Shown: piece by piece, positions 4,090-61,244 of the stretch
Numbering within the stretch: position 1 is the first letter of the stretch
Layout: the number at the start of each line of letters is the position of its first letter
Position numbers and translations under genes: made by a program
Notes under the pieces: generated by a model
Database searches by the model: none
What the model saw: the letters and a program-made list of their open reading frames with translations, nothing else
What the model was told of the DNA's origin: nothing
Origin: Candidatus Shapirobacteria bacterium
GTDB taxonomy: Bacteria > Patescibacteriota > Microgenomatia > UBA12405
Length of the DNA: 64,000 bases
NCBI GenBank assembly: GCA_016188545.1
Contig: JACPHO010000001.1
Location: forward strand, 483,324-547,323
Direction: 5' to 3'

Positions 4090-5064
4090 TTACTTTATTA
4101 AATTGACCACCAGTTTTACTAAAATATCTTTCTCTTTAGGTTCACTAGTGGCTATTAAGAGTGCCAACGCCACCAAAGCACGATCATTAATTTTCTTTTG
4201 GCCTACTGTATTCAACAATAATTTGTTTTGATTTAAGTAATATACAAACAACATTGAACCAATCCGTTTATTACCGTCAATAAACGGATGATCTTTAATT
4301 ACCAAATAAAGCAGGTTCGCAGCTTTTTCCTCTATGCTTTTATATAAATACTTACCACCAAATGTCTGATCAATTGTTCCGATAACAGATTTCAACTTAT
4401 CACCATTCATCTGACCAAAAAATTCCGTCAACTTACCCTCATAGTTCCGTTTGATGCTTTCGATGAATTTGATAGCCATTGTATACGACAGCTCAAATCC
4501 TGTCTTGTAGCTTAGTTCTCCTAGTGTCAGCTTACCCTCATCGTATTTTGTTAAAAGATATATAGAATTTGTGTAATCAGAAATCAGTTCCAACATCGAA
4601 TCGATTTCACCTTTTAGCTGAGGAAGTTTGGACTTTGATGTAATCAAACCAACACTTTGCTTAAGCATCTCTAGTTGGTGATTCTGCTCAAGCAATCTTT
4701 TCTTGTTAACAACATATCCTTTTACTAAGTAATTTTTCAGTATCTTTGTAGCCCATATCCTAAACTTTGTACCTTGTACTGAATTAACCCTGTATCCCAC
4801 AGAAATAACCACGTCTAGGTTATAAAAATTAGTCAAGTAGCTCTTTCCGTCACCAGCAGTTATCCGGTATTTCCGGATAACTGACTTTCTATCTAGTTCT
4901 TTGTCATCAAAAACTTTTAAAGTATGTTCATTTATGGTTCGAACATCCTTACCAAATAGTTCCGCCATTTGTTTCTGACTAAGCCAAACTGTTTTTCCAT
5001 CAAAACTAACTCTGAGATCAATGTTTCCATTTGGTGATTTATATAACACAATTTTGTTTTTCAT
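4090..5064 (-). CDS. RhuM-family / Fic-Doc domain protein
   Basis: N-terminus MKNKIVLYKSPNGNIDLRVSFDGKTVWLSQKQMAELFGKDVRTINEH is typical of the RhuM virulence protein family. C-terminal HPFIDGNKRIGSML matches the Fic/Doc active-site motif HxFx(D/E)(G/A)N(G/K)R. The NKR form is the Doc-type variant. Confidence 0.7.
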   Translation of the reverse strand: MKNKIVLYKSPNGNIDLRVSFDGKTVWLSQKQMAELFGKDVRTINEHTLKVFDDKELDRKSVIRKYRITAGDGKSYLTNFYNLDVVISVGYRVNSVQGTKFRIWATKILKNYLVKGYVVNKKRLLEQNHQLEMLKQSVGLITSKSKLPQLKGEIDSMLELISDYTNSIYLLTKYDEGKLTLGELSYKTGFELSYTMAIKFIESIKRNYEGKLTEFFGQMNGDKLKSVIGTIDQTFGGKYLYKSIEEKAANLLYLVIKDHPFIDGNKRIGSMLFVYYLNQNKLLLNTVGQKKINDRALVALALLIATSEPKEKDILVKLVVNLIK

Positions 5065-5260: not shown

Positions 5261-5620
5261 ATGAAATTTATAGACTTAAAAATCTGGGAAAAAAGTCATA
5301 AGCTGACGATTGAAATCTACAAACTCTGTAAAAAATTACCAAATACCGAAACGTTCGGAATAATATCACAGATTCAAAGATCGTCTTCATCGATCCCTGC
5401 CAACATTGCCGAAGGATTTGGAAGAAAAGGCAAGAAAGAGTTTATTCAATTTTTATACCAGGCGAAAGGATCACTTACCGAAACAGAATATTTTTTAATA
5501 TTAATCAAAGATCTAAATTATGTTGATAATATTGGAATCGAGAAATTAATATTTGAATACGAAATATTAGCTAAAATGCTAAACTCCTTTATCACTCAAC
5601 TCAAAGCAAAAAATGTCTAA
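5261..5620 (+). CDS. Four-helix-bundle protein (23S rRNA intervening-sequence protein / Avd-like family)
   Basis: 119 aa. KSHKLTIEIYKLCKKLP...FGIISQIQRSSSSIPANIAEGFGR...EFIQFLYQAKGSLTETEYFLIL matches the conserved TIGR02436/PF05635 four-helix-bundle pattern. Confidence 0.65.
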   Translation: MKFIDLKIWEKSHKLTIEIYKLCKKLPNTETFGIISQIQRSSSSIPANIAEGFGRKGKKEFIQFLYQAKGSLTETEYFLILIKDLNYVDNIGIEKLIFEYEILAKMLNSFITQLKAKNV

Positions 5621-52309: not shown

Positions 52310-53587
52310 ATGACCCCTCAAACTGTAAAGATCTATATTCAAAAACTCAAAAATATTTTTTGGCATTTACCTAAAAGTATTTTTTTTAATTTTTACTATG
52401 GTTTTCCTTCCCGGAAACTCACTTTAGTTGCTGTAACCGGAACCGACGGAAAGACCACTACAGTCAACCTCCTTCATGAACTTCTACTCCAGTCCGGTGT
52501 AAAGGTGGGTTCTATATCTACCCTAGGCGCCAAGATTGGCGAAAAAAATACTAGCGTCGGTCTTCACACCACCTCTCCCGATTCCAAAGTTGTCCAAGAG
52601 ATGTTTAAGAAAATGGTGGAGCAGGGCATTACTCATGCAGTTATTGAAGTCACTGCGCACGCCATCGACCAATATCGTTTTTGGGGGTGTCACTTTGAAG
52701 TTGCTCTTATAACCAATACTTCACACGAACACTTAGACGACTTTTTTGATATGGCTCATTACATTAGTACTAAAGCTAAACTGTTTACCCAAGCTACTCA
52801 CAACATCCTCAACAAGGACGACCCATCATACAAAGTAGTTACCGACCTAAATCCTAAAAATCTAACAACTTATAGTACAAAGGAAAAAGCAGACTATAGA
52901 GCTGCAGAAATAAAGCTAACTCCCACCAAATTAAGTTTTTATATCAACAAAACCCTAATCAATACTGATAGTAACTATCTTTACCAGGTATCAAATATCC
53001 TGGCCGCCTTCGCAGCCGCAAATATTTTAAATATATCCGTAGAAATATTTAAAAAAGTAGTCCGTCAATTTCCGTCAATGCAAGGCCGTCGTGAAGAAGT
53101 TAAAAACGATCTTGGTATCCGTTGTATAGTTGACTTTGCCCACACCCCTGCAGCCATCTCATCTACTCTTGAAACTATCCGAGCCACTTCTAAGGGTAAA
53201 AATATAATTATATTCGGAGCTACTGGTGGACGAGACCAAAGTAAGCGGCCGATTATGGGAAAAATTGTCTCCGAACTTGCCGATATTGCCATTATAACCG
53301 CCGACGACACTCGTCATGAAAAGATAGAAGTAATCAACAAGCAAATTATTAGCGGTATCGATCAATCTCGTGTAAAAAGTAAGAAATTCAGTTACCACAA
53401 CATTCCTGGACGTCAGGACGCATTTAACTACGCCCTAAAGATAGCTCAACCAGGTGATACTGTCATTGCCTGTGGCAAGGGACATGAAAACACCATTCTT
53501 CACGGCAATACTGAGTACCCCTGGTCCGAGTCCGAAGCTTTTAGAACTGCCCTACGTCATCGCAATCAAAATAATGGCAACATATAA
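52310..53587 (+). CDS. murE: UDP-N-acetylmuramoyl-L-alanyl-D-glutamate--diamino acid ligase MurE with atypical specificity motif
   Basis: LVAVTGTDGKTTT P-loop. Position after ftsI. The DNPR/DDPx specificity motif region reads ITADDTRHE. Confidence 0.7.
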   Translation: MTPQTVKIYIQKLKNIFWHLPKSIFFNFYYGFPSRKLTLVAVTGTDGKTTTVNLLHELLLQSGVKVGSISTLGAKIGEKNTSVGLHTTSPDSKVVQEMFKKMVEQGITHAVIEVTAHAIDQYRFWGCHFEVALITNTSHEHLDDFFDMAHYISTKAKLFTQATHNILNKDDPSYKVVTDLNPKNLTTYSTKEKADYRAAEIKLTPTKLSFYINKTLINTDSNYLYQVSNILAAFAAANILNISVEIFKKVVRQFPSMQGRREEVKNDLGIRCIVDFAHTPAAISSTLETIRATSKGKNIIIFGATGGRDQSKRPIMGKIVSELADIAIITADDTRHEKIEVINKQIISGIDQSRVKSKKFSYHNIPGRQDAFNYALKIAQPGDTVIACGKGHENTILHGNTEYPWSESEAFRTALRHRNQNNGNI

Positions 53588-54167
53588 CCTCGACCAACTT
53601 CCAACCATCGACCAATCTTATGAGCAAGGGATGCTTCCCCAAAGAAATGATAAAACAAAATTCTATAAAGACACCAGTGGGCGCTGCAATCTAGCCAACT
53701 ATTCACTAAGTTCAGAAAACCGGCGTATTCTTCGCAAAACCGATCAATATACCTGCCGCTCTCTTCCGCTTTGCGAGTTTGAATATACCCCTTTAATACA
53801 AAAACAAATTTATAATTGGATAAAATTACTCGGCTGGGATTTTCCCATAAGCTCAGTCAAGACTATTTTTAACTCTCATATCTTTAATCATCTGGACATT
53901 TGGCAAGATGGCGAAAAAGTTATCGCCTACTCTATTTGCTACACTTCACCTCACATCTCTCACATTGCCTATGTCTTCTACGACCCACAATACTCCCACG
54001 GGGACTTACCAATCAGACTAGTCCTCCAATTCGTCATCAATAGTTACGAACAACATCGTAAGTACTGCTATTTAGGAAGATTTTCAGGCGAGGTCGGTTA
54101 CTATAAAAGGAACATGCCCGGATTCGAACACTTTCAAGACGGTGTTTGGGTAAAGTTTAAAAAATAA
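53574..54167 (+). CDS. Arginyl/leucyl-tRNA--protein transferase-like (ATE/Bpt C-terminal domain) protein
   Basis: HISHIAYVFYDPQYSHGDLPIRLVLQFVINSYEQHRKYCYLGRF matches the ATE_C consensus (...YxFYDP...LG...L..I.....YLYLGY). Start set at MATYNL, overlapping the murE end. Confidence 0.45.
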   Translation: MATYNLDQLPTIDQSYEQGMLPQRNDKTKFYKDTSGRCNLANYSLSSENRRILRKTDQYTCRSLPLCEFEYTPLIQKQIYNWIKLLGWDFPISSVKTIFNSHIFNHLDIWQDGEKVIAYSICYTSPHISHIAYVFYDPQYSHGDLPIRLVLQFVINSYEQHRKYCYLGRFSGEVGYYKRNMPGFEHFQDGVWVKFKK

Positions 54168-54168
54168 T

Positions 54169-55476
54169 ATGAGAATTCACATACTGGCTATTGTCGGAAA
54201 AATGACAACACCGTTGGCTGTCGAACTTCAGAGATTGGGTCACACTGTCACCGGTTCTGATCAAGATAAAATATATCCACCAGCTAGTACCACTCTAGAA
54301 AAAAACTCCATATCAGTAAACACCAGGACTATCGATAAAAATATAGATCTTGTTATAGTCGGTTCTTCTTATACTCACTTTACAAGATGCGTCCAAGAGT
54401 TAGCGCAAGCCAAAAAACTTGGTATTCCTTTTATTCCAGCAACTGAATATTTAGCGAATATGCTAGTCAAACAAAATTCAATTGTCGTGGCCGGGTCTTT
54501 CGGCAAGACGACCATAACAGCACTCCTAGCTTTTCTTTTTGACAAACTAGGACTCGATCCAAGCTATTGTTTTGGCGAAAAAATAATCAACAACCTTCCC
54601 TCAGTTCACTCCTCAAATTCAGACTGGTCAATTATTGAAGGCGACGAGTCTATCAACGGTCTCGACACAAAAGCAAAATTCTTTTCATACGGTCCAAAAT
54701 ATCTCATTCTCACTTCAGTTGGTTGGGAGCACAAAGATTCTTATCCGACCCAGGAAGCCAACCAGCAGGCATTTTCAGACCTACTAAGTTTAGTCCCTCC
54801 TGATGGGATAGTTGTCTACAACCCAGAGGATAGTGGCATAAATCAGATTTTTTCTTCCACAAAAGCTACTACGGTTCCGTACGAAAATTTTAGTTTCGAT
54901 ACTTCACTTATTGGTATGCACAATAATCAAAACATTCGTGCCGCCCTTACCCTTATTAAGGCATTAAAACTTGACCTCCAAAGGGCAATCGAATTAATAC
55001 CCACCTTTTTGGGAGTAGAACGACGACTCCAAATTATTTCCAAAACTTCAAACATAACAATAATAGATGACTACGCTCAGTCTGCCATCAGAGTTAACAC
55101 AGCCATAAATTCCATTCGCGAAACTTTTCCATCAGCTGCTATAAAAGTTTTTTTTGAACCTCACGCCTCATTTCTCCAAAGTGTTTCCGGTTTGAATGGT
55201 TTCAAAGATGCTTTTTCTACATGTTCAGAAGTTATACTTTCCCAAATTAATTATCGCAAATCCATAAAAGGTGACCGAGTTACTGCACGTAGTTTTACTG
55301 ATGAGATAGGGGATTCACTCAAATACATTCCCATCTACGAGGACATATTCCAGCATTTTAAGAATTCACTAAAACCAGGTGATATTTTAATTCATTTTAG
55401 TTCAGGAGGTCTTGATGGACTCAATACGCTAAAGCGTCTAGTCTCCCACTTCAACCCTGAAATACCATATACTTAA
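54169..55476 (+). CDS. Mur ligase, Mpl/MurC-like (UDP-N-acetylmuramate--L-Ala or --tripeptide ligase)
   Basis: MRIHILAIVGKMTTPLAVELQRLGHTVTGSDQDKIYPPASTTLEK is close to the E. coli Mpl N-terminus (MRIHILGICGTFMGG...GHEVTGSD...YPPMSTLLEK). P-loop VVAGSFGKTTIT. Confidence 0.7.
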   Translation: MRIHILAIVGKMTTPLAVELQRLGHTVTGSDQDKIYPPASTTLEKNSISVNTRTIDKNIDLVIVGSSYTHFTRCVQELAQAKKLGIPFIPATEYLANMLVKQNSIVVAGSFGKTTITALLAFLFDKLGLDPSYCFGEKIINNLPSVHSSNSDWSIIEGDESINGLDTKAKFFSYGPKYLILTSVGWEHKDSYPTQEANQQAFSDLLSLVPPDGIVVYNPEDSGINQIFSSTKATTVPYENFSFDTSLIGMHNNQNIRAALTLIKALKLDLQRAIELIPTFLGVERRLQIISKTSNITIIDDYAQSAIRVNTAINSIRETFPSAAIKVFFEPHASFLQSVSGLNGFKDAFSTCSEVILSQINYRKSIKGDRVTARSFTDEIGDSLKYIPIYEDIFQHFKNSLKPGDILIHFSSGGLDGLNTLKRLVSHFNPEIPYT

Positions 55477-55484
55477 GTGTCTTT

Positions 55485-56519
55485 ATGATTCATCTTTACC
55501 TAGGACTTCTCTTATTCTCTTTCCTCACCAACAGCATTTTGGTGATTCCTTTCATCAACCTTCTATATAAACTAAAATTTCAACGACAAGAACAAACCAC
55601 TCTTGATTTTCAAAACAAGCACACCACAGTCTTTGACAAATACCACAGCCAGAAGTCAGGCACTCCCGTTGGAGGAGGACTGTTAATTATTTTTACAGTA
55701 TCTGTCCTATTCGCGTTCCTATTCCCAATTCTCAAGTTTTCCAACATTTATATTTCCAGTAACTACAAAATAGACAACGAAATTCTGATCATTTTTTTTA
55801 CTTTTGTCAGTTTCGCTGTTCTAGGTTTATACGATGATGTTCTAAAATTTTTTAACTTCGAAAAAACGGGATTCTTTGGGCTAAAAATGTTACACAAGTT
55901 GATACTCCAAATACTTCTTGCCTTCTCGATTTCTGTCTACCTTTATCTTAACTTGGGCATAAGTTTTGTATATATCCCCTTTGTTGGAGCAGTTGCTCTG
56001 GGTTGGTTTTCTGTACCGCTCTATACAATAATTATTGCCGGATTCGCCAACTTTTTCAATATTAGTGATGGACTCGACGGTCTTTCCTGCGGTCTACTAA
56101 TGATTGCCCTTTTTGCCTTCTGGTTTCTTTCCAATGCCTCCCTTGATACACCCATCTCTTTATTTTTAGCTCTATGGCTTGGCGCGCTTATCGCTTTTTT
56201 ATATTTCAATATTTATCCAGCCCGCATCTGGTTAGGAGATGTTGGCTCACTTTCATTTGGTGCCACATTTGCCCTCATCGCAATTATTCTGGGTAAACTC
56301 GTCCCTCTAATGATTGTCGGCGCCCCTTTTATTATTGAAGGCTTAAGCAGTGCCGTTCAGATAATTAGTAAAAGCTACTTTCATAAAAAGATTTTTCCAG
56401 CAGCGCCCATCCACCTAACACTTCAGAAAAACGGCTGGGAAGAGCCAAAAATTGTTTTTAGAGCTTGGCTTGCCGGTATAATATTAGCTATTTTTGGTCT
56501 ATGGCTGGGGATAAATTAG
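55485..56519 (+). CDS. mraY: Phospho-N-acetylmuramoyl-pentapeptide transferase MraY
   Basis: NFFNISDGLDGLSCG (NxxNxxDGxDGL), DDVLKF, about 10 TM helices. Confidence 0.9.
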   Translation: MIHLYLGLLLFSFLTNSILVIPFINLLYKLKFQRQEQTTLDFQNKHTTVFDKYHSQKSGTPVGGGLLIIFTVSVLFAFLFPILKFSNIYISSNYKIDNEILIIFFTFVSFAVLGLYDDVLKFFNFEKTGFFGLKMLHKLILQILLAFSISVYLYLNLGISFVYIPFVGAVALGWFSVPLYTIIIAGFANFFNISDGLDGLSCGLLMIALFAFWFLSNASLDTPISLFLALWLGALIAFLYFNIYPARIWLGDVGSLSFGATFALIAIILGKLVPLMIVGAPFIIEGLSSAVQIISKSYFHKKIFPAAPIHLTLQKNGWEEPKIVFRAWLAGIILAIFGLWLGIN

Positions 56520-57043
56520 CGCTTCTAAAACTGGAAATCCAAAAATATCTTGGTATTCCTTATTTCACCAATAAGGGTAAATTTAAAACAACTGGTTCTA
56601 ATGTTTTTGTTGGTAAAGGCACAGCCAAAGAAATTGCTCTGGAAACAATCAATTTAGCCAATCAACAAAATATTAAACTATTGGAACTATCCGCCGACCG
56701 CATCTATAATTTTCAGAAAAAAAACCACCTTGGCATCGATTGTTCTGGTTTAGCGTGCCATTTGCTCAATTTTTATTTCGATACCAAATTAGACCCACGC
56801 CGCACATCTGCACAGATGCTGACCTCATCGCCACTTTCACAAGAAATTGAAGACCCCACAACCGGCGACCTAGTCCAACAAAAGAACGGTAAGCATCTAT
56901 TGTTTATCGTCGAAAAAGACGGCAATATAATCAACTATATCGATAGTAGTTTCGAAGGCAGAGGAGTTCGTTACGGGAGTTTCAATATCAACAACCCAGT
57001 TTTCAAACACGACGGTTTTTTCCGTCTACTTCTCCTCAATTAG
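56501..57043 (+). CDS. NlpC/P60 family peptidoglycan endopeptidase
   Basis: LGIPYFTNKGKF and GIDCSGLACHLLNFYF match the catalytic Cys motif GxDCSGL. Downstream His in GKHLLF. Start uncertain: the first in-frame Met after mraY is used. Confidence 0.55.
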   Translation: MAGDKLALLKLEIQKYLGIPYFTNKGKFKTTGSNVFVGKGTAKEIALETINLANQQNIKLLELSADRIYNFQKKNHLGIDCSGLACHLLNFYFDTKLDPRRTSAQMLTSSPLSQEIEDPTTGDLVQQKNGKHLLFIVEKDGNIINYIDSSFEGRGVRYGSFNINNPVFKHDGFFRLLLLN

Positions 57044-57193
57044 TTCGCGATAAGTCAAGGGTTCTAAAGATTGTATTTCTACTTCAGTTCCACACTCACT
57101 ACATTCCAAAATATCACCAACTACCATTCCCTCAATTTGAGGTATTTCACTATTACAATCCGGACAAGTAATTTTTAAGTTCGCATCAGCCAT
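57029..57193 (-). CDS. LysW-like zinc-ribbon amino-group carrier protein (55 aa)
   Basis: Reverse-strand translation: MADANLKITCPDCNSEIPQIEGMVVGDILECSECGTEVEIQSLEPLTYRELIEEK. Matches the LysW core CPxC...GE(L/I)(V/L)xCxxCGxE(L/V)E(V/I)xxL(D/E)PL. Below the 60-aa threshold of the ORF track. Confidence 0.55.
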
Positions 57194-57226: not shown

Positions 57227-58027
57227 ATGACACCACTCAATTGTTTTGACGATATCTATTTTAAACGTGAAGACGAGTCAGTTACTGGCTCCGCCAAAGA
57301 TAGAGCCATTCCTTATCAGATCGACAACTTAATCGCCCAAGGGTTCTCATCTGCAGTAATTTCTTCCACTGGAAATGCTGCTATTGCTGCACAATATTAT
57401 TGCAATCTAAAAAAGATTCCCTTAACCGTGTTTGTTTCTCCTCACACACCCCAGTCCAAACTCTCCCTTATTAATAATTACCAAACAACACTTAAACCAG
57501 TTTCCGATGCCATTAAGTACTCCAAGGCTAATAAAAGCTACTTACTACGCCAGTCAACTGACGAGTCGGCACTAATAGGGTATAGCTATCTTGGTAGTGA
57601 AATTATTGAACAAGTACCCGATGTTACCAGTATCTTTTTCCCCGTGGGAAGTGGGGCCACTTTAGTTGGAGTATCTTCTGCAATACCTAAAAATGTCAAA
57701 ATATTTGCCATCCAATCTGCTTACAACTGTCCCATTACTAAAGAACTTGACCCTGGCTTTATCCAAGAACCTATTAATATAACCGACGCCCTAACCGCCA
57801 AATATGTCCCACTCAAACCACGTGTACATAATGTTCTGAAAGCCACTGGTGGAACGGGACAAGTTGTATCAAATCAAGAAATCATGGATGCTCAAAATAA
57901 GCTAGAAAGTTTTGGGGTGCGCTGTTCTTATGAAGGGGGACTAACCTTAGCTGGGCTATTCAAAGCAAAATCCTTATTTGATATCGGACCAAAACCACTA
58001 GTTATTATCACTGGCACCAAAAGATGA
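57227..58027 (+). CDS. PLP-dependent fold-type II enzyme, cysteine synthase (CysK/CysM)/threonine synthase-like
   Basis: YFKREDESVTGSAKDRAI matches the PLP-lysine motif of CysM (NPAGSVKDRAA). Gly-rich loop FFPVGSGATLVG. At 266 aa it is shorter than typical members. Confidence 0.6.
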   Translation: MTPLNCFDDIYFKREDESVTGSAKDRAIPYQIDNLIAQGFSSAVISSTGNAAIAAQYYCNLKKIPLTVFVSPHTPQSKLSLINNYQTTLKPVSDAIKYSKANKSYLLRQSTDESALIGYSYLGSEIIEQVPDVTSIFFPVGSGATLVGVSSAIPKNVKIFAIQSAYNCPITKELDPGFIQEPINITDALTAKYVPLKPRVHNVLKATGGTGQVVSNQEIMDAQNKLESFGVRCSYEGGLTLAGLFKAKSLFDIGPKPLVIITGTKR

Positions 58028-59151
58028 CCAAGATTGAAAATTATTTAAATACCCTCCCTTACCACTTTTATTTTTTGGTGGTCGATAACTTTCTAGATAT
58101 CAATCTACCAAATCTAACTAACTTCGTCTCGATATCGCCAAAAACACTTGGCATCCAGCTTGAACAAAAAAATTCTGGCAGATTGCTTTCCCATCCCGAG
58201 TGCATCAGTTTCATAAAAACTCACACCCCCAAAGGACTTACCCCAGCAATTATTCCATTTAAACCATCACCAAAGATTGATCTGGTCTGTCAACAGAACG
58301 GTTGGGTTAACATCAGCAATCCCAGCAAATTAAATCGTTTTTTCGAAGACAAGATCCTGTTTTCAAAACTATTAGACGAACACTTCCTCCCCCAAATACC
58401 TCACACTATCACCACTTTTACAAAAGACAATTTCGCGGTCGCACAGGAGCAGTATGGCTCCTTGTTAGTAGTCCAGACCCATTTTGGTTGGGCGGGCAAT
58501 AGCTCCCACCTCTCCGATGACTTTAGTAGCTTATCGACCAAAATTGCTATTGATACTCCTATAAAAATATCTCCATTCCTCACCGGCACTTCTCTAATAA
58601 ATAACTGCTGTCTTACTCCACAAGGTCTTGTCCAAAGCCCTCCAGGACTTCAGTACACCGGTATCTCTGCTTTATCTAAAAATCCACTTGCTACCACCGG
58701 CCGACAATGGCCTTCGCACTCGGGCTCTAATATTAATGACCAGATTAAAAAAATAACCATCAATTTTAGTGAAGTTCTAAAATCCAAAGGCTACTTAGGT
58801 TTTTTTGGGTTAGATTTTTTTGTTAATGAAGACAAAGTTTTTTTGTTGGAATGTAACCCAAGGCTAACTGCTTCTTTTTCCTTCTATACTGCAATAGAAA
58901 AAAATAGTAACTATGAACCCCTATTTTTTTATCACCTGCTTTCATTTTTACCCAGCACTTATCCCATAAACCAAATTGAACAAAACCGACGGTTCACAGA
59001 CTCTACTATTGTTGGTTCTGAAATAACCCTCAAGAGTGAAGAGGGGAATACCATCAAAAAATACAACGCCTTTATAGACTTTGCACCTGAAGGTGACCCT
59101 ACAAAAATTGATCAAATAGTTTTGAGTGAGGTACTAAATGAAGTCATCTAA
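58024..59151 (+). CDS. ATP-grasp superfamily ligase of unknown specificity
   Basis: GFFGLDFFVNEDKVFLLECNPRLTASF is the ATP-grasp C-terminal catalytic motif (ExNxR). The central SLLVVQTHFGWAGNSSHL is a probable ATP-binding loop. No Ddl N-terminal motif. Confidence 0.6.
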   Translation: MTKIENYLNTLPYHFYFLVVDNFLDINLPNLTNFVSISPKTLGIQLEQKNSGRLLSHPECISFIKTHTPKGLTPAIIPFKPSPKIDLVCQQNGWVNISNPSKLNRFFEDKILFSKLLDEHFLPQIPHTITTFTKDNFAVAQEQYGSLLVVQTHFGWAGNSSHLSDDFSSLSTKIAIDTPIKISPFLTGTSLINNCCLTPQGLVQSPPGLQYTGISALSKNPLATTGRQWPSHSGSNINDQIKKITINFSEVLKSKGYLGFFGLDFFVNEDKVFLLECNPRLTASFSFYTAIEKNSNYEPLFFYHLLSFLPSTYPINQIEQNRRFTDSTIVGSEITLKSEEGNTIKKYNAFIDFAPEGDPTKIDQIVLSEVLNEVI

Positions 59152-60262
59152 GTTCATTTTTTTAGTATCCATATTATTAACAATTGGGCTGGTTTTTATT
59201 TCAATCTCTTCCATAACTGAAGCCAGTAATACTGTTGGAGACAAATTCTTTTTTATAAAAAAACAGCTCCTTTGGTCACTCGTTGGGGTTGCCTCTTTTA
59301 GCCTTGCCTCCACCATTCCCTTGTCCCTCATCAAAAAATTTGCCACGCCTTTATATATAATCTCCACTGCCTTGCTTGCAATTATCTTAATACCCAGTCT
59401 GAGTAACAGCGCTTTAGGTGCGAGGCGGTGGTTGGATCTGGGAATAGTTGGCATACAACCATCTGAAATATTTAAGCTTGCTGCTATTATTTTCTTCGCC
59501 AACGTTTTTTCTCAAGAAAAATACCGCCATCTAAAATATCTAGTTTTATTTTTAACCGTTCCACTTTCATTAGTTGTTCTCGAGCCAAATATGAGCACTG
59601 CTATTCTTATAGCTGCCATTACCATTACTATTTTCTATTTAGCCAATGGCAACCTCACTAGCATTATTGCGATTTGTTCTGTAGCCATGATGATCAGCAC
59701 TCTGCTAATCGTTATTTCTCCATACCGCAAAGCCCGTTTTGACCAAACTTCGTATCATTCAAATCAGATGACTCTCACTCTCACTTCAGGTCAGTTGGCC
59801 GGTAAGGGCTTTGCAAACTCAGATCAAAAATATCGTTATCTACCCAAAATATCTACTGATTCAATTCTTGCTGTTATCGGCGAAGAAACCGGCTTCATAG
59901 GAGTTAGTTTGATAGTAGGTTTGTATTACATCTTAGTTAGTGACATTTTTACTCTCAGTACTTTTCAGGTCAAATATAGTTTTAAGTACCTACTGATACT
60001 GGGCATTGGCTGTTGGATTGCCTACCAAAGTCTTATCAATATGGCCACAGTAGTTTCTCTCATTCCACTCACCGGAGTCACCTTACCACTTATTTCATAT
60101 GGAGGATCATCCCTGATAACTATTCTTTTTGGGCTTGGTCTCATCAACAACTTGATATACTCAACTAGATATGAAGATCAGCAAGACCATCATCATAACC
60201 GGAACTCATCACACACCAGCTATCGAGCTCATAAACCATCTCAAAAAAGATCCGGAAGTTAA
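59138..60262 (+). CDS. ftsW: SEDS family peptidoglycan glycosyltransferase FtsW
   Basis: About 10 TM helices. KQLLWSLVG...GARRWLDLG...ISTDSILAVIGEETGFIG. Confidence 0.85.
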   Translation: MKSSKFIFLVSILLTIGLVFISISSITEASNTVGDKFFFIKKQLLWSLVGVASFSLASTIPLSLIKKFATPLYIISTALLAIILIPSLSNSALGARRWLDLGIVGIQPSEIFKLAAIIFFANVFSQEKYRHLKYLVLFLTVPLSLVVLEPNMSTAILIAAITITIFYLANGNLTSIIAICSVAMMISTLLIVISPYRKARFDQTSYHSNQMTLTLTSGQLAGKGFANSDQKYRYLPKISTDSILAVIGEETGFIGVSLIVGLYYILVSDIFTLSTFQVKYSFKYLLILGIGCWIAYQSLINMATVVSLIPLTGVTLPLISYGGSSLITILFGLGLINNLIYSTRYEDQQDHHHNRNSSHTSYRAHKPSQKRSGS

Positions 60263-61244
60263 CTGGAAAATAGTCTATGTCGCTCATCAGTATAAGACCG
60301 AAACACACCTTCTTCACACCATAATTCCCAAACTAAAAGTGGAATTCTTTAATCTTGACTGTGGTAAGTTTGATCGCAAAAATCTGGACATAACCTTGAT
60401 GGGTATTCCTAAGATCATTAAAGCGTTTTTTACATCCCTCTCTCTTCTAAAAAATCTCCAGCCTCAAATAGTCGTTTCTTTTGGTGGTTATGTTTCTGTC
60501 CCAGTTGTTATTGCTACATATTTCAATAAGATTCCCTCGATTACTCACGAACAGACAGTTACCAATAGTCTAGCAACCAAAATCAACAGTTACTTTGCCA
60601 CAAAAGTAGCCCTTTCATTTGATAATGTCACTCAAAAAAAACAATTACCTGTCAAAAAAACTGTCGTCACCGGTAATCTTTTAAGACAGGAAATCTTTAA
60701 CACTACATCAACAAATTATAAGAATACCACCCATCCAATAATTTATTTTACTGGCGGCAACCAAGGATCAATTTTTCTAAACGAGTTAATATATCAACTC
60801 GTCCCACTGTTAGGTAACAAATATACAGTCATTCACCAAACTGGGAAAAATAATAATCAAGTACTTCAAGACGAGTTGACCAAAAAATACAAATACATTT
60901 CATCTGAGTTTATCGAGAGTGAAGATATTGGCTGGGTTCTAAGCAACGCCGACGTTATTGTCAGTCGATCTGGTGCCAATATTTGCCAAGAAATAGATAC
61001 CCTCGACAAAAAAGCACTATTGATTCCCCATCCCTTCACCCAACAAAACGAGCAGCAGCTAAATGCACTCTGGTTACAAAACCATCACCCTAAGTCGATT
61101 AAGATAGTTTCACAACCAAACGCCAGTCCATCAACGATACTCGAAACCATCAACGAACTTGTAACCACTATTCACACCTCACACCCCAAAAAGTTACCCC
61201 TTATTCACCCATTATATAAACTAGTTCATGAAATATCTCTCTAA
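60171..61244 (+). CDS. murG: Undecaprenyldiphospho-muramoylpentapeptide beta-N-acetylglucosaminyltransferase MurG
   Basis: IIITGTHHTPAIEL (the GGTGGH-like G-loop), FGGYVSVPVVIA, C-terminal HQTGK. The 92-nt overlap with ftsW is unresolved. Confidence 0.8.
   Translation: MKISKTIIITGTHHTPAIELINHLKKDPEVNWKIVYVAHQYKTETHLLHTIIPKLKVEFFNLDCGKFDRKNLDITLMGIPKIIKAFFTSLSLLKNLQPQIVVSFGGYVSVPVVIATYFNKIPSITHEQTVTNSLATKINSYFATKVALSFDNVTQKKQLPVKKTVVTGNLLRQEIFNTTSTNYKNTTHPIIYFTGGNQGSIFLNELIYQLVPLLGNKYTVIHQTGKNNNQVLQDELTKKYKYISSEFIESEDIGWVLSNADVIVSRSGANICQEIDTLDKKALLIPHPFTQQNEQQLNALWLQNHHPKSIKIVSQPNASPSTILETINELVTTIHTSHPKKLPLIHPLYKLVHEISL

Follow-up and report, generated by a model that had tools for sequence, protein, structure and literature searches.

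The division and cell wall (dcw) gene cluster of a Candidatus Shapirobacteria bacterium, a member of the Microgenomates within the Candidate Phyla Radiation (CPR), encodes only two Mur ligases: MurE and a second enzyme of the MurC/Mpl family, which is named MurC* here. The cluster is part of a 64-kb stretch of DNA (GC content ~0.38), referred to as the window. MurC* is preceded by a gene for an ATE-like protein, and a set of genes for a P60-like protein, a LysW-like protein, a pyridoxal phosphate (PLP) enzyme and an ATP-grasp enzyme, referred to as the module, fills the place of murD. The reading tentatively favored here is that the ATE-fold enzyme makes a dipeptide of the L-Ala-D-Glu type, which MurC* joins to uridine diphosphate N-acetylmuramic acid (UDP-MurNAc), the two replacing MurC and MurD. 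Put more cautiously still, a large clade of Microgenomates, Shapirobacteria and several relatives, may lack MurC and MurD altogether and start the stem peptide in reverse, with D-Glu from the carrier module, tRNA-borne L-Ala transferred by the ATE-type enzyme, and a ligase derived from Mpl. The observations behind this proposal concern gene content, conservation, co-occurrence, folds and motifs.

On the plus strand, the cluster runs in the order rsmH, ftsL, ftsI, murE, the ATE-like gene, MurC*, mraY and the NlpC/P60-like gene. Further 3', the LysW-like gene (on the minus strand), the PLP enzyme, the ATP-grasp enzyme, ftsW, murG, ftsQ, ftsA and the start of ftsZ follow. The genes from murE to MurC* are these:

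52310..53587, plus strand: murE lacking domain 1, 425 aa, with the P-loop GTDGKT at aa 44-49 (TIGR01085, 324.6 bits, cut-off 257.3)
53574..54167, plus strand: ATE-fold aminoacyl-tRNA transferase-like protein, 197 aa, start ATG at 53574 (AlphaFold and Foldseek)
54169..55476, plus strand: MurC*, a UDP-MurNAc ligase of the MurC/Mpl family, 435 aa (Pfam Mur_ligase N, M and C domains)

When every open reading frame (ORF) of at least 100 aa in the 64 kb is scanned with Pfam and NCBIfam profiles, MurE and MurC* are the only Mur ligases of the cluster, and no further Mur ligase, MurB, Ddl, Alr or racemase is detected; the remaining ORFs of this size encode mostly glycosyltransferases. An initial annotation of this DNA had noted just these two ligases, as well as the absence of murD, murC and ddl from their usual positions, and both statements hold in the scan. 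The pattern was followed in 80 loci from a scan of species-representative genomes and 80 from a metagenome scan seeded with MurA, of which 110 loci, amounting to 1.72 Mb, form the Shapirobacteria-type subset, with about 10 kb read on each side of the cluster. All 110 show the same pattern and share the order RecO-GlyRS-lipoprotein-RsmH-FtsL-FtsI-MurE-ATE-like-MurC*-(MurA)-MraY-P60-like-LysW-like(-)-PLP-ATP-grasp-FtsW-MurG-FtsQ-FtsA-FtsZ, and the full FtsI-to-FtsW gene set is found in 68 of them. Since the same order recurs in 110 loci, the arrangement is neither chance nor an assembly artefact. Queries made from the MurC, MurB, MurD, MurF, Ddl and Alr of sister lineages matched just MurE and MurC* in these loci (within ~10 kb). 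No description of this arrangement was found in a literature search covering Mur ligases of CPR bacteria and Shapirobacteria, ATE-like proteins together with Mur ligases, and LysW together with peptidoglycan.

The sister loci, which have the same upstream synteny and MurA proteins 43-48% identical, show what the arrangement departs from. Their order is MurE-MurC-MurB-MurA-MurF-MraY-MurD-FtsW, with MurC (374 bits), MurB (318 bits) and MurD (376 bits) all above their NCBIfam cut-offs, whereas the window type reads MurE-ATE-MurC*-(MurA)-MraY-P60/LysW/PLP/ATP-grasp-FtsW. In this comparison, the module fills the murD slot and MurC* the murC slot. The initial annotation had described an Mpl-like ligase in the murF slot; the ligase is indeed Mpl-like and not MurF-like (YPPxS, the insertion, EPHASF and SSGG, see below), but its slot is that of the sister murC. 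The replacement of murD by the LysW/PLP/ATP-grasp trio between mraY and ftsW, also noted there, is confirmed: within the cluster, the trio always occurs with MurC* and never with MurD. Three further sister loci (L145, L153 and L156) have the order MurE-YvcK-MurC-MurB-MurA-MraY-FtsW; their clusters lack both MurD and MurF and hold no substitute for either. Their YvcK genes, CofD-related and UDP-GlcNAc-binding, lie between murE and murC:

L145:6443-7444: YvcK
L153:6474-7451: YvcK
L156:6595-7581: YvcK

When the PLP enzyme encoded on an intermediate contig was used as search seed and the context of the matches was looked up, further lineages with the system emerged. L164, L166 and L168 are arranged as MurE-ATE-like-MurC*-MurA-MurF-MraY-LysW(-)-PLP-ATP-grasp-FtsW, and L167 has the same order minus MurF, murF thus being variably present among the MurC* lineages. 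The most complete cluster, L169, reads MurE-ATE-like-MurC*-MurB-MurA-Ddl-MurF-MraY-P60-like-LysW(-)-PLP-ATP-grasp-FtsW, and it lacks a gene for just one canonical step, that of MurD. The ATE-adjacent ligases of these lineages score 344-394 bits with a hidden Markov model (HMM) of MurC* versus 253-299 with one of sister MurC, and fall below the murC cut-off (243-255 bits). Across the span from murE to ftsW, the module is present and MurD absent in 79/79 MurC* loci, and the ATE-like gene is separate in 77 of the 79, fused in one (L071) and unclear in one. In the canonical-MurC loci, an ATE-like gene or the module occurs in 0/7, and MurD in 4/7. The relatives that keep murB, ddl or murF in the cluster (L164, L166, L168 and L169) indicate that the pathway still uses these steps, and because these relatives have the same system, murF, ddl and murB of the window genome are probably encoded elsewhere in that genome, as the initial annotation had allowed for. 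A different context is found in two Gottesmanbacteria, in which P60-like-MurD-LysW(-)-PLP-ATP-grasp stand together outside a dcw cluster, with a MurD above its cut-off (221.7 bits, cut-off 211.95).

The gene for MurA varies in its position. It lies between MurC* and mraY in 54/65 Shapirobacteria loci (for example L003:9571-10899; NF006873, 414 bits) and outside the cluster in 11/65 loci and in the window clade; in the window, it is absent between 55476 and 55485. The relocated copies (L093, L094, L112, L113, L116 and L121) are solitary, among pilin, pyruvate kinase and ABC-transporter genes, and no mur neighbors are seen around them. In one locus (L081:8572-13697), MurC* and mraY are separated by an insertion consisting of an inverted murA and four further ORFs on the minus strand (235-347 aa).

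MurC* is identical to the NCBI protein HYV64_03105 of a Candidatus Shapirobacteria metagenome-assembled genome. It scores 204.2 bits with the murC profile TIGR01082 (cut-off 335.1; sister-lineage MurC reaches 373.9) and 154.2 bits with the mpl profile TIGR01081 (cut-off 388.7), thus remaining below both. Its closest relative in the PDB is the Mpl of Psychrobacter (3hn7), with 122 bits for the single sequence versus at most 87 for any MurC, and the family profile likewise gives 195 bits for this Mpl and 178 for MurC. Motif alignment places four Mpl-type segments on its gene:

54271-54291, plus strand: IYPPAST
54640-54684, plus strand: GDESINGLDTKAKFF
55156-55173, plus strand: EPHASF
55399-55410, plus strand: SSGG, C-terminal

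The corresponding features, namely GSD..IYPPxS, an insertion after E-x-DE that ends in K-x-KF, an extra residue in EPHASF, and the C-terminal SSGG, are missing from canonical MurC, that of the sister lineages included. MurC* is also without the (A/S)RE motif of the L-Ala site of MurC. The hallmark motifs of Mpl are (S/T)AFFDKRSK and the loop GI(C/G)GTFM (Das 2011); at these sites, MurC* has an insertion of Mpl length reading INGLDTKAKFF and the loop AIVGKMT, so the full motifs are not present. The segment DD[YF][AG]HHP, retained by both MurC and Mpl, is DD[YF]AQS in the MurC* family (aa 300-305, nt 55066-55083), and the two histidines conserved in known MurC and Mpl are gone throughout the family.

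As to whether this ligase belongs with MurC or with Mpl, a point raised in the initial annotation, a neighbor-joining tree with 100 bootstraps sides with neither: MurC* forms its own clade, separate from E. coli Mpl and from the clade (98%) that unites the MurC of E. coli with that of the sister lineages, in a tree with a long branch, few Mpl sequences and hand-entered E. coli sequences (the Mpl one matches 3hn7 with 456 bits). The AlphaFold model of MurC* (predicted local distance difference test, pLDDT, 92.8) has the MurC/Mpl fold, and a fold search with it does not separate MurC from Mpl, as the template modeling (TM) score is dominated by domain orientation. Judged from profiles, motifs and tree, MurC* is a third MurC/Mpl subfamily. 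It shares with Mpl the three-domain fold, the N-terminal GSD..YPPxS, the E-x-DE insertion ending in K-x-KF, the extra residue in EP-x-xxx and S-[SN]-G-G, but differs from it in identity (~27%), in score (154 bits against a cut-off of 389), in its incomplete FFDKRSK and Gly-loop motifs, and in QS in place of HHP. With MurC, it has in common the fold (TMq 0.80-0.83 to the E. coli and H. influenzae enzymes), the slot of sister MurC and its highest NCBIfam score, but it is only 21-24% identical to sister MurC, is without the (A/S)RE region and the C-terminal GAG motif, and stands outside the 98% clade. Mpl is a recycling accessory, whereas MurC* occupies the murC slot of the dcw cluster and is the only UDP-binding ligase there, which argues for a biosynthetic role rather than an accessory one in recycling. 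As MurE is kept, the peptide substrate of MurC* would be shorter than that of Mpl.

The start of the ATE-like gene overlaps the murE stop (14 nt), and a single nucleotide lies between its end and MurC*. Its product matches the NCBIfam arginyltransferase profile with E=3e-8, far under the cut-off (NF002346, 33 bits versus 170), and Pfam ATE_C (PF04377) with 22.8 bits, below 25; the ATE_N domain is absent, and the profile match covers only positions ~80-246. The fold is more telling. In the AlphaFold model (pLDDT 93.8), Foldseek ranks ATE1 of human and yeasts at the top (E=1e-8, TMq 0.64-0.73), followed by the aminoacyl-phosphatidylglycerol synthase domain of MprF and by FemX, and all listed fold matches are aminoacyl-tRNA transferases. 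The family profile gave no match against PDB sequences, so that only the fold search is informative. The family is small, with 229 representatives among 1.84 billion, and is well conserved: 552 homologues are found at 55-65% identity, and conservation exceeds that of MurC*. In L071:9341-11278 (P0362, 645 aa), the Pro/Ser-rich linker PSPSVPSPSVPSPSTPS joins an ATE-like domain to the N-terminal end of MurC* in a natural fusion. A distant ATE-like domain (29-217) also occurs in P0409 (809 aa, from the representative library), fused to a phosphoenolpyruvate-utilizing, PPDK-like protein with a phosphohistidine swivel motif.

The characterized ATE1 and Bpt enzymes move an aminoacyl group from tRNA onto the alpha-amine of an N-terminal Asp or Glu. 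The ATE-like protein resembles them in its predicted fold and in a weak match to the ATE_C core, including the motifs SxxAYxFYDP and YLG...YK, but it has the C-terminal GNAT-like domain only, lies below all curated cut-offs and is always encoded between murE and MurC*, once in fusion with the latter. A common superfold also connects it with FemX, FemABX and MurM; however, FemX consists of about 335 aa in two GNAT-like domains, ranks under ATE1 and MprF, and has no sequence similarity to the ATE-like protein. To our knowledge, the sole tRNA-dependent step in the synthesis of peptidoglycan precursors is side-chain branching of the FemX type.

The module stands between mraY and ftsW, and with these flanking genes it is arranged as follows:

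55485..56519, plus strand: mraY (Pfam Glycos_transf_4; TIGR00445, 155.7 bits)
56501..57043, plus strand: NlpC/P60-like cytoplasmic protein, about 180 aa (Pfam NLPC_P60, 19.7 bits, below 23)
56738-56749, plus strand: DCSG cysteine motif of the P60-like protein (conserved in homologues)
57026..57193, minus strand: LysW-like zinc-ribbon carrier protein, 55 aa (Pfam Zn_ribbon_LysW, PF21344, 38.5 bits, above 27)
57227..58027, plus strand: fold-type II PLP enzyme, 266 aa, of the group of Ser/Asp racemases and Thr dehydratases (Pfam PALP, 131 bits)
58024..59151, plus strand: ATP-grasp ligase of an uncharacterized family, 375 aa (Pfam ATP-grasp_3, 25.7 bits; PRK06524, 86.6 bits, below 684)
59138..61244, plus strand: ftsW and murG, the canonical membrane steps downstream (TIGR02614, 273 bits; TIGR01133, 179 bits)

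Below the Pfam cut-off as it is, the P60-like protein keeps in its homologues the DCSG cysteine and, further downstream, a GKH histidine. Its gene is kept in all Shapirobacteria-type loci, and homologues are found beside MurD in the Gottesmanbacteria and after MraY in L169 (HMM E=1e-27 to 1e-30). In every lineage, the LysW-like gene lies on the minus strand, against the direction of the plus-strand operon around it; the window copy shares 18 nt at its 3' end with the 3' end of the P60-like gene and starts 33 nt from the start of the PLP enzyme. Its product scores 31.3 bits with the LysW equivalog TIGR01206 (below 53.2), and the EDWGE tail with the attachment Glu is not present; the C-terminus is invariantly EEK in an alignment of about 60 homologues, as well as in L164-L169 and the Gottesmanbacteria. 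The LysW-like genes of other lineages, for two of which the coordinates are those of a gap, are located here:

L164:9794-9952: LysW-like
L166:9830-9982: LysW-like
L167:9822-9974: LysW-like
L168:9817-9969: LysW-like
L169:9754-9930: LysW-like
L163:9760-10000: LysW-like, in a gap
L165:9830-10000: LysW-like, in a gap

The profile of the PLP enzyme finds Thr dehydratase, Ser racemase and Asp racemase in the PDB (1e-16 to 1e-12), and the ATP-grasp protein aligns with PDB entries in its core only. A function of the latter as Ddl is ruled out: it has no Dala_Dala_lig_N or Dala_Dala_lig_C domain, no Ddl appears among its PDB profile matches, and L169 encodes a genuine Ddl alongside it. A known carrier-protein system, LysW/LysX (ArgW/ArgX), likewise joins a small zinc-ribbon protein above the Pfam LysW cut-off to an adjoining ATP-grasp ligase. 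The module differs in its carrier tail (EEK, not EDWGE), in having no kinase, reductase or aminotransferase genes, in an ATP-grasp protein that is not LysX-like by sequence, and in its cell-division and cell-wall context. Pairs of a racemase and an ATP-grasp D-aspartate ligase are known from E. faecium and L. lactis. They resemble the module in that a racemase-like gene lies beside an ATP-grasp ligase and is tied to the modification of peptidoglycan precursors, but their racemase is PLP-independent, they have no carrier or P60-like partner, and they are not in the murD slot.

MurE itself is unusual in two ways. Although above the TIGR01085 cut-off, it scores 337 bits with the equivalog NF001126, below the cut-off of 373, and its alignments begin at residue ~27, which pairs with position ~94 in the profiles and with a residue in the range 94-138 in MurE structures of the PDB; ftsI ends 15 nt upstream of the gene. 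Domain 1 of MurE holds the uridine site (PMC3829189), and the alignment start implies that this domain is absent. The P-loop is at aa 35-66 in the MurE homologues of 70 loci. The selectivity site is as follows:

53303..53314, plus strand: DDTR at the DNPR/DDPR site of MurE, aa 332-335 (PDB alignment)

DDTR aligns column for column with the DNPR of M. tuberculosis and Acinetobacter MurE (2wtz, 8g6p and 7d27) and with the DDPR of 4bub, so that the initial annotation had identified the motif correctly and it is DDTR, not the DNPR of enzymes adding meso-diaminopimelate (DAP), that stands in this column. It is found in 66/70 Shapirobacteria MurE proteins; L071 has DDPR. The MurE of Thermotoga maritima, an LD-lysine ligase (4bub, 174 bits), is similar in having Asp as the second residue of the motif (DDPR versus DDTR); unlike it and other Lys-type enzymes, the window MurE has no domain 1 and has Thr replacing Pro.

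Both oddities are traits of the clade and not of the rewiring, since sister lineages with canonical MurC, MurB, MurF and MurD share them, or nearly so: their MurE also lacks domain 1 (P-loop at aa 34-52) and has the motif EDPR or DDPR. DDTR is, by alignment, a P-to-T variant of a clade-wide non-DAP motif [E/D]DPR, which rules it out as a marker of rewiring. The missing domain is similarly ruled out as a sign of a non-nucleotide substrate, as truncated MurE occurs alongside canonical MurC, MurD and MurF in the sisters. The suggestion of a non-standard stem peptide in the initial annotation stands insofar as comparative genomics points to a non-standard start, and falls insofar as it leaned on the MurE motif. 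MurE without domain 1 (400-440 aa; L147:6492-7754) and an N-truncated MurF (L147:11317-12567) are general in this group of Microgenomates, with equivalents in L122-L158. The truncated MurF has about 410-420 aa with a profile match from position ~64, and is present even with canonical MurC, MurB and MurD. Presumably, both enzymes act on UDP-MurNAc-peptides without the usual N-terminal domains.

Aminoacyl-tRNA transferases acylate free amines only, which leaves two options for the ATE-like enzyme: the side-chain amine of residue 3, as in FemX, or the alpha-amine of a free or carrier-bound acceptor, as in reverse assembly. Reverse assembly jointly explains the loss of MurC and MurD from the clusters, the retention of MurE, MurF, Ddl, MurB and MurA in relatives, and the Mpl-like ligase. 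It also explains why the ATE-like gene is always beside MurC*, the one fusion, and the preference of ATE/Bpt enzymes for N-terminal Glu or Asp as acceptor. That MurE and MurF are kept and MurC and MurD lost fits a ligase that adds residues 1 and 2 as a unit, not a tripeptide. The position of MurD within the P60/LysW/PLP/ATP-grasp module of the Gottesmanbacteria suggests that the module serves the D-Glu step. Such a step is known to vary in nature, the nearest published parallel being MurD2/MurL of Xanthomonas (PMC8788868), which is likewise a lineage-restricted replacement of the D-Glu step discovered through missing genes. MurD2 is, however, a homologue of MurD that acts on UDP-MurNAc-L-Ala (PMC8788868), whereas the window cluster has no MurD homologue and employs unrelated enzyme families.

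In the proposed route, we infer the substrates, the order of the steps and a genome-wide absence of murD. D-Glu or a close analogue would be made with the help of the module: going by the chemistry of the families, the ATP-grasp enzyme would tether Glu to the invariant C-terminal Lys of the carrier, the PLP enzyme would racemize the tethered Glu, and the P60-like peptidase would release the product, in one version only once L-Ala has been added. Ala-tRNA would serve the ATE-like enzyme as donor of an L-Ala for the free alpha-amine of this Glu, by the chemistry of ATE1/Bpt, and MurC* would attach the resulting dipeptide to UDP-MurNAc in a single step. MurE, whose DDTR motif probably goes with Lys or Orn as the added residue, and then MurF would continue as usual, with murF, ddl, murB and murA of the window genome encoded elsewhere.

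Several points weigh against this dipeptide route. The absence of murD was read over no more than ~10 kb on each side of the clusters and 64 kb in the window, and relocation is common, as the three canonical-MurC sister loci without murD and murF, unreplaced, and the moved murA of the window clade show. The MurC* lineages may be of single ancestry, the perfect co-occurrence then reflecting few independent events. By HMM, MurC* is nearer to murC (204) than to mpl (154), and the fold search cannot separate the two; L-Ala-D-Glu is, moreover, poorly used by the Mpl of Psychrobacter. The carrier-protein steps are pure inference, and the clusters of L164-L168 have no P60-like gene. Lastly, the one peptidoglycan role of tRNA-dependent transferases that we know of, side-chain branching as in FemX, fits a gene placed right after murE. 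The main rival, only somewhat less likely than the dipeptide route, is an ordinary pathway with scattered genes. In it, murD, murF, ddl and murB would be elsewhere, MurC* would be a fast-evolving but functional MurC adding one residue (L-Ala, Gly or Ser), and the other new genes would be accessory: the ATE-like protein would be a FemX analogue that transfers a tRNA-borne amino acid to the side-chain amine of residue 3, and the PLP and ATP-grasp enzymes would act like the enterococcal and lactococcal racemase/D-aspartate ligase pairs, in a D-amino acid branch or in D-Glu decoration. Relocation is documented for murA (11/65 loci and the window) and consistent with the unreplaced murD and murF of L145, L153 and L156 and the variable murF of MurC* lineages. 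FemX is among the structural matches of the ATE-like protein, directly 3' of murE, a Lys/Orn-type wall, typically a branched one, would suit the non-DAP motif of MurE, and the higher murC score and murC slot of MurC* as well as the coexistence of module and MurD in Gottesmanbacteria are in line with it. What scattered genes leave unexplained is why a ligase with Mpl signatures replaces canonical MurC exactly and only where the ATE-like gene occurs, why MurD alone is never in such clusters, even when MurB, Ddl and MurF are there, and the ATE-like::MurC* fusion; the lack of the L-Ala-site motif in MurC* also speaks against an ordinary MurC.

Another explanation, which is unlikely, assigns the missing step to the module: the ATP-grasp enzyme, aided by the LysW-like protein, a PLP racemase and the P60-like protein, would substitute for MurD by adding D-Glu or another residue 2 to UDP-MurNAc-X, itself the product of MurC*, and the ATE-like enzyme would add a branch. 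In every MurC* lineage, the position of the module is precisely that of murD, its PLP enzyme is nearest to Ser/Asp racemases, and ATP-grasp enzymes share acyl-phosphate chemistry with Mur ligases, those of the LysX type binding Glu or aminoadipate. The Gottesmanbacteria, however, hold MurD and the whole module side by side, so the module alone does not make MurD redundant; the known loss of MurD coincides with the ATE-like/MurC* pair, not with the module, and the Mpl-like change in MurC* is unexplained. Salvage, in which MurC* would be a true Mpl that re-attaches tri- or tetrapeptides scavenged from a host to UDP-MurNAc and makes MurC and MurD dispensable, is highly improbable. It would suit the Mpl-like motifs, the Mpl as closest solved relative and the lifestyle of CPR bacteria, which are scavengers. 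Yet all 110+ loci retain a conserved MurE that passes the TIGR01085 cut-off and would be redundant if tripeptides were attached, and this strong conservation in every such cluster also makes the salvage-type tripeptide ligation considered in the initial annotation unlikely. MurC* is, in addition, below the mpl cut-off (154 versus 389) and without the full (S/T)AFFDKRSK and GI(C/G)GTFM motifs, and salvage offers no role for the always-adjacent ATE-like gene.

Some features of the window lie outside these questions. A scan of the cluster for promoters and terminators found nothing exceeding shuffled expectation. Positions 1-46852 form a very large surface-glycan region with at least 15 glycosyltransferases, an MBOAT and AlgX-like acyltransferase pair, a radical SAM/SPASM enzyme, methyltransferases, and Wzy-like and PMT-like membrane proteins, as well as LPG_synthase_TM, DUF4012, a sugar transferase and a nucleotidyl transferase. 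A RhuM/Fic-domain ORF (4090-5064, minus strand) adjoins an ORF for a 23S rRNA intervening-sequence protein (5261-5620, plus strand), which is followed by an ABC transporter ATPase.

The relay of MurC, MurD, MurE and MurF is held to be universal in wall-bearing bacteria and is a paradigm for drug targets. If the dipeptide route is true, a widespread lineage replaces the first two of these ligases, which would be the second natural exception after MurD2/MurL. For the first time, a tRNA-dependent step would be seen to build the main chain of the stem peptide of peptidoglycan, and an Mpl-type ligase to serve biosynthesis instead of recycling. The route would also extend the tRNA-dependent transferases of the ATE/Bpt type from protein degradation signals to wall synthesis. 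The uncharacterized set of LysW-like, ATP-grasp, PLP-enzyme and P60-like genes would gain a function, and there would be a reason why automated pathway reconstruction of these CPR genomes reports an incomplete peptidoglycan synthesis. Should murD prove to be encoded elsewhere, the tight ATE-like/MurC* pair and the third MurC/Mpl subfamily still stand, as do a MurE without domain 1 and an N-truncated MurF that presumably function in genomes with an otherwise canonical pathway.

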